From the NCBI GenBank assembly GCA_028714675.1, contig JAQTLV010000005.1, positions 3,475-67,474 of the forward strand: DNA of 64,000 nt, in the 5' to 3' direction. The position numbers were made by a program, and so were the translations under genes. Positions 32,683 to 64,000 of this stretch are shown here, piece by piece. The notes below the pieces were generated by a model. The model searched no databases. It had not been told where the DNA came from and saw nothing but the letters and a program-made list of their open reading frames with translations. Numbering within the stretch: the first letter of the stretch is position 1; every line of letters begins with the position of its first letter. Source of the stretch: Sulfurovaceae bacterium (GTDB lineage: Bacteria; Campylobacterota; Campylobacteria; Campylobacterales; Sulfurovaceae).

Positions 32683-32721
32683 TTATTCGTCCATAACCTT
32701 TCTTTTAAAAATATTATAGCA

Positions 32722-55393: not shown

Positions 55394-55807
55394 TCATTTT
55401 ATCCGATACCAAGTCTGTTTTCTGCCTATACTAAATGCGCCCCAGCCTATATAGCCTTTGACTATCATTTTATCACCATCTTCTATTAATGTTACTTTAT
55501 ATTCTTTATCATCTTTTGGATCAGTAATCGTTCCACCGCCATATGTTTTAGAGTCTTCTTTTTTTACATTTTTAATTACAATAACACCTACTAAACTTTT
55601 ATTTTTGTATTTACCTTCACAAACACTACAGACTTTTTCTCCAGTCAATACCTTTCGTATAGTTCCACTATAAACTCCAGCATTATTGGTAATAGCAACA
55701 AGTGATTTCTCTTTACCACTTTTTTCATCTACTGTTTTCCAAATTCCTACTATATCCCCAAAAAGCAAACTACACCCAACAAAAAGCAAAAGGGTCATTT
55801 TTTTCAT
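55394..55807 (-). CDS. DUF2147 domain periplasmic protein
   Basis: 137-aa ORF with a signal peptide. GIWKTVDEKSGKEKS...DPKDDKEYKVTL...VKGY.G....GRKQTWYRI matches the DUF2147 pattern. Confidence 0.78.
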   Translation of the reverse strand: MKKMTLLLFVGCSLLFGDIVGIWKTVDEKSGKEKSLVAITNNAGVYSGTIRKVLTGEKVCSVCEGKYKNKSLVGVIVIKNVKKEDSKTYGGGTITDPKDDKEYKVTLIEDGDKMIVKGYIGWGAFSIGRKQTWYRIK

Positions 55808-55834: not shown

Positions 55835-55872
55835 ATTATAGCAGTTTTTTTTGTTTTTATTATAGAGTTTTT
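55835..55872. repeat. left boundary direct repeat (contains the TGcTATAAT promoter of the DUF2147 gene on the minus strand)
   Basis: ATTATAGCAGTTTTTTTTGTTTTTATTATAGAGTTTTT. The 16-nt core ATTATAGCAGTTTTTT and TAGAGTTTTT are shared with 58141-58177. Confidence 0.55.
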
Positions 55873-56025
55873 ACAACAGCCACACGCATCCATTTCATTT
55901 TGAGTCTTTGAGGTATCAAATGTGCCTGTTAACTTACCGCTGTTTGCTTGAACCTAGTCTGTTGTGGTGTTGGTGCGAAAAAATAGTTTACTCATTTTAT
56001 TTGTAGGATTTTACAGTTATCATTG

Positions 56026-56097
56026 TTACCTAACCCCTATGTCTGATTCGCCCAAATACTTTTTCAGTTCTTCGTTAAGTTTATTAATATCTGCCAT
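56026..56097 (-). pseudogene. 23-codon ORF, possible stub of a third cassette
   Basis: MADINKLNEELKKYLGESDIGVR. It is preceded by GAGGTAAAAATGG, the same RBS/start context as the 369-aa gene, 24 nt after the attC-like element. Confidence 0.25.
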
Positions 56098-56121
56098 TTT
56101 TACCTCATTTGAACATCTGTT

Positions 56122-56190
56122 ACATAACGTTTGAGTTGAGAAATATTTGAGCCGCAGGGTCAAATATTTCTCTCCAATGGTTTGTTATGT
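56122..56190 (-). repeat. attC-like imperfect palindrome 2
   Basis: In the gene sense it reads ACATAAC-AAACCATTGGA-GAGAAATATTTGA-CCCTGCGGC-TCAAATATTTCTC-AACTCAAAC-GTTATGT. It has a 13-bp perfect inner stem and 7-bp complementary ends containing AAC and GTT. It starts 2 nt after the stop codon of the 369-aa gene. Confidence 0.6.
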
Positions 56191-56192
56191 GT

Positions 56193-57302
56193 TTAATAGT
56201 CTGCATTTTCAATCATATCTCTATAACTTTGTTCGGCATGAATAAAGTCTTGAAAGTTCTCAATATCATCAAGATATGAAGACACTCTATTAAAAAAATC
56301 ATCTGAAAATGATAACGACAATCCACTTTCTGCATATTTCCATGCAAATTGAGAAGATTCATACTCAAGCCAATTATCTATCTTATCAAATTGCTCGCAC
56401 AACTCTTCATATTTAATATCATCCGTAGGTACAAAATTAAAGTGTGGACTATCTTTAAATTTTGATAGGTTTGCAGGTATCATACCAGCATTATCAAGTT
56501 GAAAATAAAATGGTTCACCATTTTTACTGAACATACCATGAGAAAATGTATTTCTATATTTTTCTTTTATAATATTGATTTCATCGTAAAATAGTTTATT
56601 TTCTTGTATATTTAATGGAAATATGATCTTAAATTTTTCAGAAAAATCTTTTTTATAAAAATCATAAATATTAATTGTTCTATCTGTATTAAAAAATAAA
56701 CAATAAGCTAAAAAATGTTCAAAACGGCTAAAATAAGCTTCTATCATGGAAAAAGTATTATAAAATCCAGTATTGTTTTTTGTCATCATAGTATTTAAAA
56801 AGCTTGACATATCATCTATATTAAAATCAGGTTCTCTTTTGCCATAAATTTTATTTGCTTCTTCTTTGAAATGATAATACATATTTGACAACATATTGAA
56901 ATGATTTGAAATTGTTAAATTACCATATTGCATTTGTTCTTTTGCATAATCTTGTAATATTTTTTTCTCGATATAATTGACAGCTTTATTGATTTTCTTA
57001 ATTATATTTTCATAGTTATCTTTATTCTCAAGATAAAATCTTAATCCAAACTTTTCTAAAGCAACTGCACATTTTGTATTATCATAAGAAAAATACAAAA
57101 TCCAATGCATTTTATCGTATCTGTATCCTAATTTATATTGCATTACTTTGTTTAACAAAAAAAATATAAGCTGTGGAATAGGAAGAGATTCTCTTTCTAC
57201 TTTTACTCTAGTTTCATTTTGATAAATATTTGATTCATCACTATGTGCAAATCCATTTAAAATTTTTTTTATAGCATTAATATGGGTTTCTGATATTTCC
57301 AT
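56193..57302 (-). CDS. hypothetical 369-aa protein with RNxxxH (HEPN-like) motif
   Basis: The ATG at 57302 is preceded by GAAGAGGTAAAA. YRNTFSHG (R250-H255) is encoded at 56538-56555. I recognise no other family. The first 50 codons of the track ORF overlap the upstream gene and the attC-like element and are discounted. Confidence 0.7.
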   Translation of the reverse strand: MEISETHINAIKKILNGFAHSDESNIYQNETRVKVERESLPIPQLIFFLLNKVMQYKLGYRYDKMHWILYFSYDNTKCAVALEKFGLRFYLENKDNYENIIKKINKAVNYIEKKILQDYAKEQMQYGNLTISNHFNMLSNMYYHFKEEANKIYGKREPDFNIDDMSSFLNTMMTKNNTGFYNTFSMIEAYFSRFEHFLAYCLFFNTDRTINIYDFYKKDFSEKFKIIFPLNIQENKLFYDEINIIKEKYRNTFSHGMFSKNGEPFYFQLDNAGMIPANLSKFKDSPHFNFVPTDDIKYEELCEQFDKIDNWLEYESSQFAWKYAESGLSLSFSDDFFNRVSSYLDDIENFQDFIHAEQSYRDMIENADY

Positions 57303-57314
57303 TTTTACCTCTTC

Positions 57315-57388
57315 ACATAACGTTTGAAATGACCAATAAAAAAAACCCGTGGGCGGCTTTTTGATTGGTCTCCTTTGGTTTGCTATAC
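57315..57388 (-). repeat. attC-like imperfect palindrome 1
   Basis: On the plus strand it reads ACATAACGTTTGAaat-GACCAAT-(26-nt partly self-pairing loop)-ATTGGTC-TCCTTTGGTTTGCTATAC. The flanks are conserved with element 2 (13 of 13 on the left, about 15 of 20 on the right). It overlaps the TAG stop of the DUF4145 gene by 1 nt. Confidence 0.55.
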
Positions 57389-58011
57389 TAGGTGTCTCTC
57401 GTAATGATTGCATCTTTTTTGTCGTCAGGTAAAGTATCATATAGAGCGGCAATTTCTTTCGGTTGTGTAATCATTACGTGGGCAATTAGATTGATTAATT
57501 CAAAAAGTTTATGTGCTATTTCTTGATTGTCTTTTAAATCAATTTGTCCTGGATGTACCGCATCATTTCCTACTACTCTTACAATGTCTAAAGCTTTTTG
57601 AATTGTAGGTGGCAGTCCTTTCTGCACTAAACTTGCAATATCGCTATTGATATTTTTTCCACTTTCTCCCAGTTGCTTACACAATTTTTGTATTGCTAAC
57701 CTTAATAAGGCAGCAGCTCCTCTTGGAGACTTATTAACTATGGTGGCAGCTTCTGAATAGTCATTAATGATATCTTGTTCCAAATCAGTATTCGGCGGCT
57801 GAATGCCAGTGGTTTCAGGATATATCATCTTTTCATCTAGCCAAATTGAAAAGTTATTACAATGAGTGCAGAAAGCAATTTTTTCCCTTGGCATATTGCT
57901 ATAGCCTCCACGATAGTAAAATGCATCCGTCCAAATCTGGTGAGAAAATGCATTACAGTATGGGCAATTAAAGCTAGTTTTCTTGAATGCTGGCGGAACT
58001 ATTTTATGCAT
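57388..58011 (-). CDS. Zn-ribbon + DUF4145 domain protein
   Basis: 207 aa from the ATG at 58011, with an N-terminal CPYC-x28-CTHC zinc ribbon. The C-terminal PRGAAALLRLAIQKL...DIVRVVGNDAVHPG matches my memory of the DUF4145 signature (R..GN.A.H). Confidence 0.7.
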   Translation of the reverse strand: MHKIVPPAFKKTSFNCPYCNAFSHQIWTDAFYYRGGYSNMPREKIAFCTHCNNFSIWLDEKMIYPETTGIQPPNTDLEQDIINDYSEAATIVNKSPRGAAALLRLAIQKLCKQLGESGKNINSDIASLVQKGLPPTIQKALDIVRVVGNDAVHPGQIDLKDNQEIAHKLFELINLIAHVMITQPKEIAALYDTLPDDKKDAIITRDT

Positions 58012-58140
58012 ATCTTTTCTTTGAAATTTTAGGGTCAGGTGATGAAAATAAACCACTACTCATAACTTTTCCTTGCTTTTGGACTCACTCCAAGATATCT
58101 TGCTATATCTGCTTGTTTATATCTATCATTTTATGCTTTT

Positions 58141-58177
58141 ATTATAGCAGTTTTTTGGGATTTTGTAGAGTTTTTTT
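58141..58177. repeat. right boundary direct repeat (second copy of the TGcTATAAT box, facing into the island)
   Basis: ATTATAGCAGTTTTTTGGGATTTTGTAGAGTTTTTTT. Confidence 0.55.
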
Positions 58178-58264
58178 AAAAAGATAAAAGTGGAAGTTCA
58201 ACGCCTGAACCGTAAAAATAGAGTGTGGTGAAACTACCCCAAGGGGGGGGATAGTTGAGTAGTT

Positions 58265-60142
58265 TTATTCTACCTCTGCGTCGATGACATCGTCATCTTT
58301 TGGAGTGCTTGAGCCTTCAGCAGCAGCACCGCCTTGCTCTTTTGCATAAAGTGCTTCAGCTAATTTATGGCTTTTTTCTGTTAAAGTTTTTACTTTAGCT
58401 TCTATTTCCTCTTTTGTTGCATTGTCATTTTTAAGTGTAGTTTCCAAATCACTTATAGCCTCTTCTATGTTTGCTTTTTCTGTTGCATCAAAATTTTCAC
58501 CAAGTTCACCCATAGATTTTCTAGTTTGATGAATCAAAGCATCTGCTTGATTTTTTATTTCAACCAAAGCTTTTCTTTGCTCATCTTCTGCTTTATGTGC
58601 TTCAGCATCTGCTACCATTTTTGATATTTCTTCATCGCTAAGTCCAGACGAACCAGTGATTTTAATCTCTTGTGATTTACCAGTACCTTTGTCAAGGGCT
58701 GATACTGTCAAGATTCCATTTGCATCTATATCAAATGTAACTTCGATTTGAGGAACTCCTCTAGGAGCTGCTGGAATATCTCTAAGTTCAAACATACCAA
58801 GAGATTTATTGTCTTTTGCAAATTCTCTTTCACCTTGAAGTACATGGATGCTAACTGCTGGTTGATTATCTTCTGCAGTTGAAAATACTTGTGACTTTTT
58901 AGCAGGTATAGTTGTACCTTTTTCTATAATCTTAGTAGTAACTCCACCTAGAGTTTCAATCCCAAGACTAAGTGGTGTAACATCAAGAAGCAATACATCT
59001 TTAACATCACCAGCTAGTACTCCACCTTGAATTGCAGCACCAAGCGCAACAACTTCATCTGGATTTACTGATTTATTGAGATCTTTACCAAAGAATTTTT
59101 TAACTTCTTCTTGAACAAGTGGTACACGAGTTGATCCTCCAACCATTACCACTTCGTTAATATCGCCTTTTTTAACACCTGCATCTTTTAAAACGCTTTC
59201 TATCGTTTTGATTGTATTTGCAACCAAATCAGAAATCAATGATTCAAATTTTGCTCTTGTAACTTTCATAACAAGGTGTTTTGGACCACTTGCATCTGCT
59301 GTGATAAACGGTAAGTTTATCTCTGTTTCAGTTGCACTAGAGAGCTCTTTTTTTGCATTTTCTGCTGCATCTTTTAATCTTTGAAGAGCCATTACATCGC
59401 TTTTTATGTCAACTCCAGTTTCATTTTTAAATTCGCTTGCAACAAAGTCAATAAGTCTATTGTCAAAGTCATCACCACCCAAAAATGCATCACCACCTGT
59501 TGCCATAACCTCTACTACATTATCGCCTGTCTCCAAGGTTGTAACATCAAATGTACCACCACCCAAATCATAAACAACGATTTGCTCTGCATTTTTCTTA
59601 TCCAATCCATAAGAAAGTGCGGCTGATGTTGGTTCATTTATAATACGAAGAACATTAAGACCTGCTATTGTTCCAGCCTCTTTGGTTGCTTTTCTTTGTG
59701 CATCATTAAAATAAGCAGGAACAGTAATAACTGCATCTGTTATCTTCTCTCCAAGATAAGCTTCTGCATCCTCTTTTAGTTTCATTAAAACTTTTGCAGA
59801 AATCTCTTGAGGAGTATAAGTTTTACCAGCAACCTCGATAGCACAAGCTCCATTTCTATCAATAATATGATATGGAAGTCTCGTTTTTGCCTCTTTTGCT
59901 TTTGGCTCATCACACATTAGACCCATAATTCTTTTTATAGAGTATATTGTTTTTTCAGGATTTGTAACTGCTTGTCTTTTTGCAGTATCTCCAACTAAAA
60001 TTTCACCTTTATCTGTAAAAGCAACAACTGATGGAGTTGTATTTTTACCTTCTTTATTTACAATTATTTTTGCTTCACCATGGTCAAATATTGCCATAGC
60101 TGAATTTGTAGTACCTAAGTCTATTCCTAATACTTTTGCCAT
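58265..60142 (-). CDS. dnaK: molecular chaperone DnaK (Hsp70)
   Basis: 625-aa ORF with [17 protein letters not shown] and the other canonical Hsp70 signatures. Confidence 0.98.
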
Positions 60143-60250: not shown

Positions 60251-60276
60251 TTATAACGCCAACACAGCATTGCTCT
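60251..60276. repeat. 26-nt direct repeat, copy 2 (overlaps the grpE stop codon)
   Basis: TTATAACGCCAACACAGCATTGCTCT, 78 nt from copy 1. Confidence 0.8.
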
Positions 60277-60817
60277 ATTTTGCAGTGCTTACCATTGCTG
60301 GGCGGAGAACTTGATCTTTCATACTATAACCCTTTTGTAGGATTTGTACAATTTCACCGCTTTGTTTTTCTTCATGCTCAACTTGCATAATTGCTTGATG
60401 AACATCTGGGTTAAAGCATCCCTCGCACTCTATCTCGCTAATGCCATGTTTTTCTAAAACTTTTTTGAGCTGTTCGTAGGTTTTTAAGATGCCTTCTTTG
60501 ATTTTTTCCAATACTTCAGATTGCTCATCTGAGTTGGCAATATCAATAGATGCAATAGCACCATCGAATGAATCCATAACACTAAGCAAATCTTTTGCGA
60601 AACTACTGTTTGCGTAAGTTACCGCAGTTATTTTATCTTTTTCAAGACGCTTTTTTGTATTTTCAAAATCAGCATAAGCTCTTAAATATTTATCTTTATA
60701 CTCCTGAACTTCATTTTGAAGCAGAGAAAGTTCGTCCGTAACACCAGTTTGTTCGGCTTCACTTATTTCTACCTCTTCATTTATTTGTTCAGAAGTTTCT
60801 TTTTCTTCTTTAGACAA
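60275..60817 (-). CDS. grpE: nucleotide exchange factor GrpE
   Basis: 180-aa ORF with an acidic N-terminus, a coiled coil (YLRAYADFENTKKR) and a C-terminal beta domain. The TTG start is preceded by a strong AAGGAGG. Confidence 0.92.
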   Translation of the reverse strand: MSKEEKETSEQINEEVEISEAEQTGVTDELSLLQNEVQEYKDKYLRAYADFENTKKRLEKDKITAVTYANSSFAKDLLSVMDSFDGAIASIDIANSDEQSEVLEKIKEGILKTYEQLKKVLEKHGISEIECEGCFNPDVHQAIMQVEHEEKQSGEIVQILQKGYSMKDQVLRPAMVSTAK

Positions 60818-61502: not shown

Positions 61503-61913
61503 ATGGATATGCTACTAACTCGTGCTACAGAATATGCTTTATTATCTCTAGAAATAATTAAAAATGCAAAACACCCCATTGGCGTTGAATTTATAGCAAA
61601 TGAATTGAATATCCCAAAAAGTTTTTTGGCAAAAATCTTACAAAATTTAGCAAAAAGTGAGATTCTTGTCTCTAAAAAGGGTGCGAAGGGTGGTTTTATA
61701 TTGATTAAACCGATTAATGAAATTACTCTTTTTTCTATAGTAGTAGCAGCTGAGAGTAAGCATCCTACTGTTTTTGATTGTGCTCAATATGGAGAAACTT
61801 GTCCAAATGGCGCAATTGGTATGTGTGCCATCTCACCATTCATTGCTAAATTTCAATCCGAAGTAAATTCATTTTTAAAAAATATGACTTTAGGAGATAT
61901 ATTTGAGCAATAA
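61503..61913 (+). CDS. Rrf2-family transcriptional regulator
   Basis: 136-aa ORF with an N-terminal winged HTH (LTRATEYALLSL...SFLAKILQNLAKSEILVSKKGAKGGF). Cys residues in the C-terminal half (CAQYGETCPNG..C) could ligate a cluster. Confidence 0.85.
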   Translation: MDMLLTRATEYALLSLEIIKNAKHPIGVEFIANELNIPKSFLAKILQNLAKSEILVSKKGAKGGFILIKPINEITLFSIVVAAESKHPTVFDCAQYGETCPNGAIGMCAISPFIAKFQSEVNSFLKNMTLGDIFEQ

Positions 61914-62931
61914 TGTTTTTCATCTTTCTCATATAGATTTAGATGGCTATGGATGTCAATACCTAACAAATATTGCTTTTGATAATATTAGATTTTACAA
62001 TGCCAACTATGGTCCAGAAGTAAGTGCTAGACTTAAAGAGATAATATTGGATATCAAAAATGCTAATAATGCTACCATACTTATTACAGATCTTAATCTA
62101 ACACCAAAAGAAGCTATATGGATAGAAAAAGAAGCGAGAGAGGTAAATGCCTCGTTAATTCTTTTAGACCACCATATAACTGGGAAAAGCAGTAGTGAAA
62201 AACACGAATGGTATCATCTAGATATATCACACTGTGGTACTTGGCTGACATATGATTGGCTACAAAAGAATTACAACTTTGACACAAATAGTGAACTTAA
62301 AACAATAGTTGATGCCATAAATGATGTTGATATGTGGCATAGTAAAAATGACTATTTTGAATATGGTAAAGTTATGATGAGTATGATATCTTCAGCAAAA
62401 GAAATAAATCGCATTATGTTTCAAAAAGATGATATAAATTATAAACACTTTTTGATAGATAGTGCGAAAAAACTCTTGAGCGGTGATGATGCAAATATAA
62501 AACTCGATGATAATGTTCATGCCCTCAAAAAAGAGTTTTTCATGGTTGACAAAAATGACACCAAAGACAATTTAATAGCATCATATGTATCATCTCTCCT
62601 TTCACAAAACAAAGATAGATTTACCATAAATTACAAAGGTTACAAAGGACTGCTAGGTTACAACATTGGTAACTCATCAATAATAGGCAATACATTTTTG
62701 GTGCAAAATCCAGACTTCAATTTTTATATGGATGTAAACTTTAGAGGTATATTTTCGCTTAGAGGTAATGACACTCTTGATTTGTCACAAATGGCTGGAG
62801 TTATAGGCAATGGTGGCGGACACAAAAATGCAAGTGGTGGAAAAATCGAAGAGTTTAGAGACTCTTTTGTATATGAAGATATAAAAGATTTTGTACAACG
62901 ATATATTAATGATAAGAGTTTTGGAAGTTAA
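61903..62931 (+). CDS. DHH/DHHA1-family phosphoesterase (NrnA-like)
   Basis: 342-aa ORF with HIDLDGYG, LLDHH and GGGHKNASGG motifs. A non-ATG (TTG) start is required because the first motif precedes any Met. It overlaps the Rrf2 gene by 11 nt. Confidence 0.8.
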   Translation: MSNNVFHLSHIDLDGYGCQYLTNIAFDNIRFYNANYGPEVSARLKEIILDIKNANNATILITDLNLTPKEAIWIEKEAREVNASLILLDHHITGKSSSEKHEWYHLDISHCGTWLTYDWLQKNYNFDTNSELKTIVDAINDVDMWHSKNDYFEYGKVMMSMISSAKEINRIMFQKDDINYKHFLIDSAKKLLSGDDANIKLDDNVHALKKEFFMVDKNDTKDNLIASYVSSLLSQNKDRFTINYKGYKGLLGYNIGNSSIIGNTFLVQNPDFNFYMDVNFRGIFSLRGNDTLDLSQMAGVIGNGGGHKNASGGKIEEFRDSFVYEDIKDFVQRYINDKSFGS

Positions 62932-62996
62932 ACTCTTATCATTCTATTCATTGCTTTAGCAAAAAATGGTTTTTAAATTATGTTATAATTATTTGA

Positions 62997-63182
62997 TTGA
63001 AAAAGACAGAAAGAGTTATAAACATTGATTTATTTTCATCATCTAACCATAATTTTAGAGGTCAAGTAGAGCTACTAGAGGACTCCCATGGCTATACCTT
63101 TATTCGATATAATGATTCATATTTGATTTTAGGTACAAATGTAGCTTTTAATGATAAACGATACACATCTGATACAGCTTAA
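62997..63182 (+). CDS. hypothetical small protein (TTG start), doubtful
   Basis: 61-codon ORF upstream of the peptidase gene. It has no clear RBS and I recognise no family. Confidence 0.25.
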   Translation: MKKTERVINIDLFSSSNHNFRGQVELLEDSHGYTFIRYNDSYLILGTNVAFNDKRYTSDTA

Positions 63183-63214
63183 CAAAATAATCATATATCA
63201 AAAAGGAGACGACA

Positions 63215-64000
63215 ATGAATGATTCAATCCTTAACATAGGGCCCATGAAAGATTGGGTTACCCCTTCAATAAATACTTACAAAAGATTAGATGCGCTGCT
63301 TACAAAGTCTAATGATTTTCCATCCCAATTCGACCTACGTAAACTTGGCAGAATCACACCAGCAAGAACTGGTAGTGGGTGTGCTAGTTGCTGGTCTGTA
63401 GCGGCTACTGGTGCTTTGGAAAGTGCATTATTACCAGAAGGTACACTCAAAACATTTTCTGAAGACCATATGCAGATGAGTATGTCTGTCTGTGGAGGTG
63501 GCGGTCACTGGATATTGGCAGCAGGCTACTATGCATCGTGGTCAGGTCCTGTCAAATACACAGATTTCGATTATCAAATAAATAATATCGGCCAAAATAT
63601 TCCATTACAAAAACATATTCAAAAAATTATTTTTATACCTACTAGAAAAGATTCTTTAGATAATGATCTGATTAAGTTTCATCTTATTCATTATGGTGGA
63701 GTATATGCTTCAGTCAGTTATCGTGGCATAACTAACCCCTCTGAAAATACGTATTATTGGCCTGAAGAAGGAAGTGTACATGCTGTAGTCATTGTGGGCT
63801 GGGATGATACATTTGATAAAAATAAATTTACATATACCTATAATTCTGATACAGGACCTAAGACATTGACGCCTCCTGGGAATGGAGCCTTTATTGTAAA
63901 AAACAATGGTGGTCCCGACTTTGGCAATGAGGGATATTATTATATCTCTTATTATGATGGTACCATCGGGTATAGCGGACTTGCTATTTATTTGCCAGAA
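63215..64000 (+). CDS. papain-like (C1 family) cysteine peptidase, N-terminal 262 codons (3' end outside the window)
   Basis: The ATG at 63215 is preceded by AAAGGAGA. It has the catalytic Cys motif GSGCASCWSVAATGALES, His in HAVVIVGWDD, and NNGGPDFGNEGYYYISY. Confidence 0.8.
   Translation, partial: MNDSILNIGPMKDWVTPSINTYKRLDALLTKSNDFPSQFDLRKLGRITPARTGSGCASCWSVAATGALESALLPEGTLKTFSEDHMQMSMSVCGGGGHWILAAGYYASWSGPVKYTDFDYQINNIGQNIPLQKHIQKIIFIPTRKDSLDNDLIKFHLIHYGGVYASVSYRGITNPSENTYYWPEEGSVHAVVIVGWDDTFDKNKFTYTYNSDTGPKTLTPPGNGAFIVKNNGGPDFGNEGYYYISYYDGTIGYSGLAIYLPE

Follow-up and report, generated by a model that had tools for sequence, protein, structure and literature searches.

A probable two-cassette CALIN with a RAZR homologue, bracketed by promoter copies between dnaK and a DUF2147 gene in a Sulfurovaceae bacterium

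How does a pair of accessory genes come to sit between dnaK and its neighbour, enclosed on both sides by what looks like the same promoter? The question is raised by a 64,000-nucleotide stretch from a Sulfurovaceae bacterium (Campylobacterota; GenBank assembly GCA_028714675.1, contig JAQTLV010000005.1, positions 3,475 to 67,474), here called the window, in which a segment of about 2.3 kb (55835-58177) separates dnaK from a DUF2147 gene. An initial annotation had read this segment as an insertion between direct repeats that duplicate a promoter, containing two genes of unknown function and three structured elements. The segment is, in all likelihood, a two-cassette CALIN (a cluster of attC sites without integron-integrases) that carries a RAZR defence gene, lies within the dnaK-DUF2147 spacer and has a copy of the DUF2147 promoter at either end.

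The 2306 nt between the repeats are an insertion, as relatives have dnaK, a spacer of 151-152 nt and then the DUF2147 gene. This empty site, with a single TATAAT box, is found on at least 12 contigs of related species (loci L007-L018, L152 and L157), namely contigs that carry DUF2147 homologues or an identical S15 protein; it is the arrangement that the initial annotation had expected an alignment with relatives to reveal. The DUF2147 protein homologues are 84% and 93% identical to that of the window, and dnaK is about 89% identical at the nucleotide level. These sites were reached through the contigs of the protein homologues; a scan of genome contigs with the DUF2147 protein gave matches in distant phyla only. 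In the window, 124 nt from the dnaK stop to the end of the right TATAAT and 27 nt from the left TATAAT to the ATG of the DUF2147 gene add up to 151, the length of the relatives' spacer. This equality is suggestive of insertion rather than decisive, because the spacer sequence has strongly diverged.

What was inserted? Prominent within the segment are two hairpin elements on the minus strand, the strand on which all the genes of this region lie: element 1, of 74 nt (57315-57388), follows a DUF4145 gene, and element 2, of 69 nt (56122-56190), follows a gene for a protein of 369 amino acids. Both have the conserved ends (C/T)ATA(A/G)CAAACC..GGAG ... TCAAACGTTATGT around a variable stem, and both consist of a 7-bp R box, 5-nt unpaired spacers, an L box with one internal mismatch and a variable stem of 13-14 bp. 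Element 1 (attC1) has GTATAGC as R'' and GTTATGT as R', and its crossover point falls at G57321|T57320; element 2 (attC2) has ACATAAC and GTTATGT in these places, and its crossover point falls at G56128|T56127. Compared with the consensus RYYYAAC/GTTRRRY, attC2 conforms and attC1 deviates once (AGC). The lengths are inside the 57-141 nt range of the imperfect attC palindrome, on the coding strand each element begins at a stop codon or directly behind one, and DNA fold z-scores are -3.0 to -5.1 over the two elements and -4.2 to -5.1 over attC2.

Rfam has no such family (no match in the region or in the whole window), and the attC hypothesis was therefore tested in four other ways. A covariance model built from six elements (R1) and a broader one from 150 sites (R2), run with filters off, each pick out these two elements and no further site in the window; either element lies directly 3' of an open reading frame, on its coding strand. 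The scores are 62 bits (E 1.5e-9) with R1 and 44 bits with R2 for attC1, and 79 bits (E 8e-13) and 76 bits for attC2. A pattern scan places members of the same family in same-strand arrays at 0.4-1.5 kb spacing in at least 120 metagenome loci, examples being arrays of 10 sites (L080) and six (L053), and relatives of the 369-amino-acid gene are located in arrays with these elements. When 143 distinct sites are compared, compensatory changes occur in 13 of the 14 stem pairs, and 136-142 of the sites retain the AAC/GTT core. Paired cells amount to 86%, against 23-43% in slid controls, and none of 500 shuffles reaches the observed score, in an alignment that was fitted to the model and is to that extent biased towards the structure.

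Do such arrays have integrases? Clustering of the open reading frames near them yields one recurrent family, which lies upstream of the array and is divergent from it. Its members in L053, L041, L049 and L094 score 405-414 bits on the TIGR02249 integron integrase model (cut-off 265), and three more loci carry integrase fragments. attC2 shares 93-98% identity with sites of many arrays (97% with one in the intI-bearing L053) and with Aliarcobacter plasmids. Sulfurimonas sp. HSL3-7 has a chromosomal DUF4145 gene, 75% identical, with an attC1-type site on each side. The homology of the 369-amino-acid gene's cassette to locus L019 has its first base at T57320, immediately behind the G in G|TTATGTG; this is the canonical cassette crossover point and supports the assignment. 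On the strength of the arrays, covariance models, covariation, adjoining integrases and Sulfurimonas flanking sites, the two elements are identified by sequence as attC sites and both genes as integron cassettes, and their attC family as a Campylobacterota integron family present in Sulfurovaceae, Sulfurimonas and Aliarcobacter. Two of the three structured elements that had gone without a name in the initial annotation are thereby accounted for. The third (55873-55965, extended to 56045) was tried as an attC and rejected, as it has no significant fold (z-scores -0.4 to +0.9) and no covariance match even unfiltered. Also rejected was a pairing of the attC1 R'' TATAGC with the promoter GCTATA, which would have put a G|CT crossover there; the Sulfurimonas attC has TATAAC, which makes the G of the window a point change.

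The Aliarcobacter faecis plasmid pAFAEC (NZ_CP053838.1, about 20.7-51.7 kb; loci L161 and L162) offers a glimpse of the family in another setting. It carries a long, mostly same-strand run of hypothetical and defence-like genes, among them DUF262, HNH, DUF2971 and HipA, with attC2-type sites, up to 95% identical, at four places. No integron integrase is annotated in the approximately 46 kb of the plasmid that were inspected.

The gene of cassette 1 (57388-58011, 207 amino acids) is not of unknown function, as had been supposed, but by homology encodes a known defence RNase. Its product has a Pfam match to DUF4145, matches the PADLOC PD-T7-4 model with an E of 2e-90 over model positions 1-208 of 211, and matches PDB 9y9c, a 24-chain entry, with an E of 1.8e-57 over residues 4-207. 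PD-T7-4 has been renamed RAZR, a zinc-ribbon and HEPN RNase that assembles round phage portal-like rings and aborts infection (Nature 2026, PMC13017515). The alignment with RAZR is full-length, and the motifs CPYC and CTHC of the N-terminal Cys4 zinc ribbon and RVVGNDAVH (R-x7-H) of the C-terminal DUF4145/HEPN domain are conserved in the cassette protein; by eye about half of the residues are identical. The gene is thus assigned as a full-length RAZR/PD-T7-4 homologue. It would give abortive-infection defence, cleaving RNA once a phage ring protein assembles RAZR. Of the defence cassettes in chromosomal integrons, PD-T7-4 is one of those met most often (10.1101/2024.07.02.601686; 10.1101/2024.07.02.601719). 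Like the defence cassettes of sedentary chromosomal and mobile integrons in those studies, the gene is a compact single-gene PD-T7-4 system in cassette form; unlike them, it lies outside any integron platform, and its host belongs to the Sulfurovaceae (Campylobacterota), not to Vibrio or the Enterobacteria. In another locus (L105:4790-4806, minus strand), the sequence directly upstream of a DUF4145 homologue reads AAAACGTATAACAAATCA, which looks like an attC collapsed to the end of R' and the start of R''.

The gene of cassette 2 (56193-57302) is of a different character. Its 369-amino-acid product has no match in Pfam, NCBIfam, PADLOC, PDB sequences or PDB folds (fold threshold E <= 0.001). 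Its AlphaFold model has a predicted local distance difference test score (pLDDT) of 82 and a predicted template modelling score (pTM) of 0.73. The family consists of 17 clusters, whose neighbours in cassette arrays and defence islands include MmeI, Fic, DUF4011-helicase, DUF5677 and toxin-antitoxin genes. As it travels with RAZR here and occurs in defence islands elsewhere, the cassette 2 protein is a candidate new defence gene product. Other settings of the gene are also seen. In L019 (7954-8001) it has no upstream attC and the junction reads CCAAAA|TTATGTGAAG, and in L023-L026 a family member without any attC stands between hrpB and a PhdYeFM/ParE pair. These loci indicate that the gene moves or persists outside a cassette context too.

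Is there an integron behind these cassettes? tblastn searches of the 64-kb window with four IntI proteins gave nothing better than an E of 0.5, and no tyrosine recombinase was found in it. The neighbours of the island are the dnaK, grpE, DUF2147, lipoprotein and chorismate mutase genes, and there is no intI within 4-10 kb. The intI-attI-Pc platform of a complete integron, Pc being the cassette promoter, is likewise missing; upstream of cassette 1 are the 3' flank of dnaK and the copy of the DUF2147 promoter. There are two minus-strand attC sites 1.2 kb apart, each after a co-oriented open reading frame. With clustered attC sites and no integrase in the window, the island falls under the CALIN definition (PMC4889954, 2016) and is an instance of an element type already described rather than of a new one. 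Among CALINs, those with two cassettes form the most frequent size class (10.1101/2022.09.11.507474). Unlike the CALINs as defined (PMC4889954), however, this one sits in a housekeeping promoter region, is bracketed by a promoter repeat of 35-38 nt and has edges without attC. A BLAST comparison of the island with plasmids and phages matched the DUF4145 gene and the attC sites, and nothing else.

The promoter repeat is the second part of the puzzle. The 16-mer ATTATAGCAGTTTTTT has exact copies at 55835-55850 and 58141-58156 (plus strand) and nowhere else in the window, where the next best match has two mismatches (chance expectation, 0.45 matches at two or fewer) and one near-match lies at another promoter-like site, 32713. 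Related and integron loci totalling about 1 Mb contain no copy of it, and hence it is not a common motif. A second block, TAGAGTTTTT, is present at 55863-55872 and 58166-58175, the order being kept in both copies. Gapped alignment resolves the whole into one imperfect direct repeat of 35-38 nt (left copy, 55835-55872; right copy, 58141-58175), which on the minus strand reads AAAAACTCT[ATA]A.AAAA.C..AAAAAACTGCTATAAT and has 31 identities, four mismatches and one 3-nt gap. Its score of 44 compares with 17.0 +/- 3.2 (maximum 36) in 1000 shuffles. The alignment found no similarity outside the repeat, which led to rejection of the idea that the repeat is the visible part of a longer, decayed duplication. 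Both copies read TGCTATAAT on the minus strand. The left copy, the promoter of the DUF2147 gene (55394-55807), ends 27 nt before the ATG at 55807. The right, promoter-like copy, TCTACA-17-TGCTATAAT, faces the island; a promoter scan credits its TCTACA-17-TATAAT, with upstream TG, with 10 of 12 matches and gives it as the sole good promoter-like site upstream of the cassettes on the minus strand.

The initial annotation had seen much of this correctly: the perfect 16-mer at both edges, the second block in shared order and the extended -10 box in each copy, one close to the DUF2147 start codon and the other directed into the island. The two points on which it had staked its insertion have also come out in its favour, as relatives do have empty sites and the repeat does not recur as a motif across the genome, with no exact copy beyond the two in the window and none in the related loci. 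Its proposal of an insertion with target duplication survives in part. The insertion and the duplicated -10 region stand, but target-site duplication as the mechanism lacks support: perfect identity is limited to 16-17 nt, comprising the extended -10 box and the preceding A-tract, the distal (upstream) half of the repeat shows about 25% difference plus an indel between the copies, and there is neither a transposase nor terminal inverted repeats. A perfect core with diverged flanks fits either a duplication of old date, in which selection acts on both working promoters, or a short-core crossover between non-identical partners.

What surrounds the two cassettes? Between the right repeat copy and cassette 1 is a 129-nt non-coding leader (58012-58140), which contains a helix-turn-helix-like stub without a start codon and a block termed module L (58034-58085). 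The stub region (58061-58146) was considered as a degenerate attC and rejected, having no fold and no model match; the GTTATGAG string within it sits in a block that has a paralogue. Between attC2 and the left repeat copy is a trailing segment of 249 nt (55873-56121), which holds a second block, module R (56015-56038), and an open reading frame of 23 amino acids (56026-56097) that has the ribosome-binding site and start 13-mer of the 369-amino-acid gene, the only sequence common to that gene and the segment. The trailing segment is probably the remnant of a third cassette. Farther out on the minus strand are a hairpin 3' of dnaK (about 58225-58255), dnaK itself (58265-60142), the resident gene upstream of the insertion, and grpE (60275-60817); the lipoprotein and chorismate mutase genes follow the DUF2147 gene, the downstream resident.

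How would such an island work? The right promoter copy, a predicted promoter, would drive the cassettes in the manner of an integron Pc, and expression of the DUF2147 gene would be maintained by the left copy. Given an IntI in trans, each cassette could still be cut out or exchanged at G|TT. The block itself would have arrived by recombination inside or next to the 16-nt promoter core. Arrival by classical attI x attC chemistry does not appear to be the route, because that chemistry duplicates nothing. Of all the features of the island, the promoter duplication alone is left unaccounted for by current integron mechanisms.

Several observations weigh against the CALIN interpretation. IntI action does not leave a duplication of 35-38 nt. 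Neither covariance model finds an attC in the regions of the outer island edges, and the block therefore does not begin or end at a cassette boundary. attC1 has AGC in R'' in place of the conserved AAC, which may impair the site. Finally, the stretch 58058-58889, with the right junction in it, is known from the assembly of the window alone. Two independent assemblies of this genome, represented by a Logan contig of SRR22315509 and a contig of GCA_028716645.1, match the window at 100% identity but end at 58057 and 58890, and consequently the 3' part of dnaK and the right junction rest on one assembly. The assembly break at 58057 is 8 nt from the GTTATGAG string.

The dnaK-DUF2147 spacer is an insertion hot spot. 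In a closer relative (JGI 3300075153, a contig of 345,728 nt), the dnaK and DUF2147 products have the same lengths as in the window (625 and 137 amino acids), and the spacer between the genes carries five unrelated genes, for proteins of 192, 473 and 215 amino acids, an opposite-strand isochorismatase and MerR. In L153 (13255-13458; GCA_001493195.1) the DUF2147 gene is absent, and the lipoprotein gene begins 204 nt after dnaK. A second islet is found 5 kb away, between a gene for 342 amino acids (61903-62931) and recR; it occupies 62932-64000 (plus strand) of the window and continues in L155 (6314-8440). Its cargo includes a peptidase C1 gene that has a TGTTATAAT box to itself (62980-62988), it is bracketed by an imperfect duplication of its own target, TAAACTCTTATC / TAAACCTTAGTCC, and no attC was found in it. 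At this second site relatives either have convergent genes that overlap, i.e. an empty site, or carry other cargo.

The two islets have short sequences in common. Module L, at 58034-58085 (minus strand) and 63001-63052 (plus strand), is identical at 39 of 52 positions (75%; score 44, against 20.4 +/- 2.8 in shuffles) and in both islets lies between the promoter and the first gene. Module R, a 25-nt block with 21 of 25 positions identical (84%), stands right after the last gene, at 56015-56038 (minus strand) and L155:6428-6451. Neither module was found in about 1 Mb of other loci, and viral contigs gave chance-level matches only. Did the modules originate from a common donor, do they represent a regulatory leader held in common, or are they parts of an unknown carrier? 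Any of these could be the case.

Among the other explanations, the one that best withstands these data is that the islet was assembled elsewhere and came in by natural transformation, with one end anchored by homology in the flanking genes or the promoter and the other joined at a short identity, at a site that is a hot spot. The join would be made by homology-facilitated illegitimate recombination or by a Campbell-type crossover in the 16-nt core. Campylobacterota are naturally competent. The five-gene cargo in the same spacer of the JGI relative, the missing DUF2147 gene of L153 and the differing cargo between the 342-amino-acid gene and recR all agree with this explanation, and copies identical in a 16-nt core and about 25% different upstream are as expected of non-identical partners. 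However, transformation accounts for the spread of the islet and not for its first insertion, no donor locus with matching junctions was found, and 16 nt is very short for RecA-dependent exchange. Such an arrival is a real possibility, though one with less than an even chance.

Could IntI have acted directly on the spacer? IntI inserts cassettes frequently at GWT sites of the genome, where they are expressed near resident promoters, and small CALINs may arise from cassette insertion outside integrons (Loot et al., 10.1101/2022.09.11.507474). In the present case a multi-cassette circle would have entered cleanly by such an attG-type event into a spacer that already held two tandem promoters, and the repeat would be older and unrelated. 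The island resembles the attG-type products in having its cassettes away from attI and beside a resident promoter able to express them. R'-like strings stand at plausible junctions, AAAAG|TTATGAG (58066/58065), which is 8 nt from the break of the Logan contig, and GGCTG|TTGTAA (55877/55876). But the attG reaction exchanges a single strand at G|WT, makes no duplication and is expected to leave a distal attC; the island has the duplication of 35-38 nt and no terminal attC at the distal junction. In addition, an ancestral spacer of about 270 nt with two promoters is called for, and all sampled relatives have 151-152 nt and one promoter. The GTTATGAG string, moreover, lies inside the 52-nt block that has a paralogue at 63001-63052, and hence marks no junction made here. 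This route is therefore unlikely.

Rather less likely still is an undescribed, target-duplicating carrier without an integrase of its own, which would move cargo, cassettes included, into intergenic hot spots and supply or copy a promoter there; the two modules common to both islets, and the imperfect target duplication around each, could be its mark.

Direct repeats exactly at both edges also bring to mind a transposon or insertion sequence (IS)-type element that made a target-site duplication, or a Xer/dif-type element (integrative mobile element exploiting Xer, IMEX) that left an att pair. Like the attL and attR of tyrosine-recombinase islands, the island has a short identical core at both ends within partly similar flanks; unlike them, it encodes no integrase, and its core is a promoter -10 box and not a tRNA or other usual target. 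The left copy is loosely similar to the A-tract-CTATAA-T-tract of difH. Yet no transposase or recombinase gene and no terminal inverted repeats were found, and a target-site duplication should be shorter and less imperfect than this repeat of 35-38 nt. A difH/XerH (IMEX) origin was rejected, since Sulfurovum-group genomes use classical dif and the right copy is without a second arm. Elements of these kinds are very improbable sources. CALINs can arise from complete integrons that have lost intI and attI (PMC4889954), but that origin has hardly any likelihood here, with intI fragments absent from the island, from its flanks and from the window as a whole, an intact dnaK terminator region and DUF2147 promoter on the two sides and empty sites in relatives. 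TGnTATAAT after A-tracts is the usual promoter form in Campylobacterota, and the near-match at 32713 stands at a promoter-like site, so that chance or the convergence of two strong promoters, irrelevant to the insertion, might be thought to have made the repeat; with exact copies at the two island edges only and none in 1 Mb of related DNA, a second block in matching order and an alignment score above all 1000 shuffles, this is scarcely credible.

What, then, does a two-cassette CALIN between dnaK and a DUF2147 gene signify? The cassettes belong to an attC family whose cognate integrases are here documented and which is widespread in Campylobacterota, from Sulfurovaceae and Sulfurimonas to Aliarcobacter plasmids, in a phylum little studied for integrons. 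The 369-amino-acid cassette protein, with a confident model and no matching fold, is flagged as a candidate new defence gene product. With empty sites available for comparison, the island offers a clean, dated example of integron cassettes leaving an integron. They settled before a housekeeping gene, and, with the promoter copied, the newcomers and the resident would both stay expressed. The locus thus bears on where CALINs come from and on whether the genes within them are expressed.

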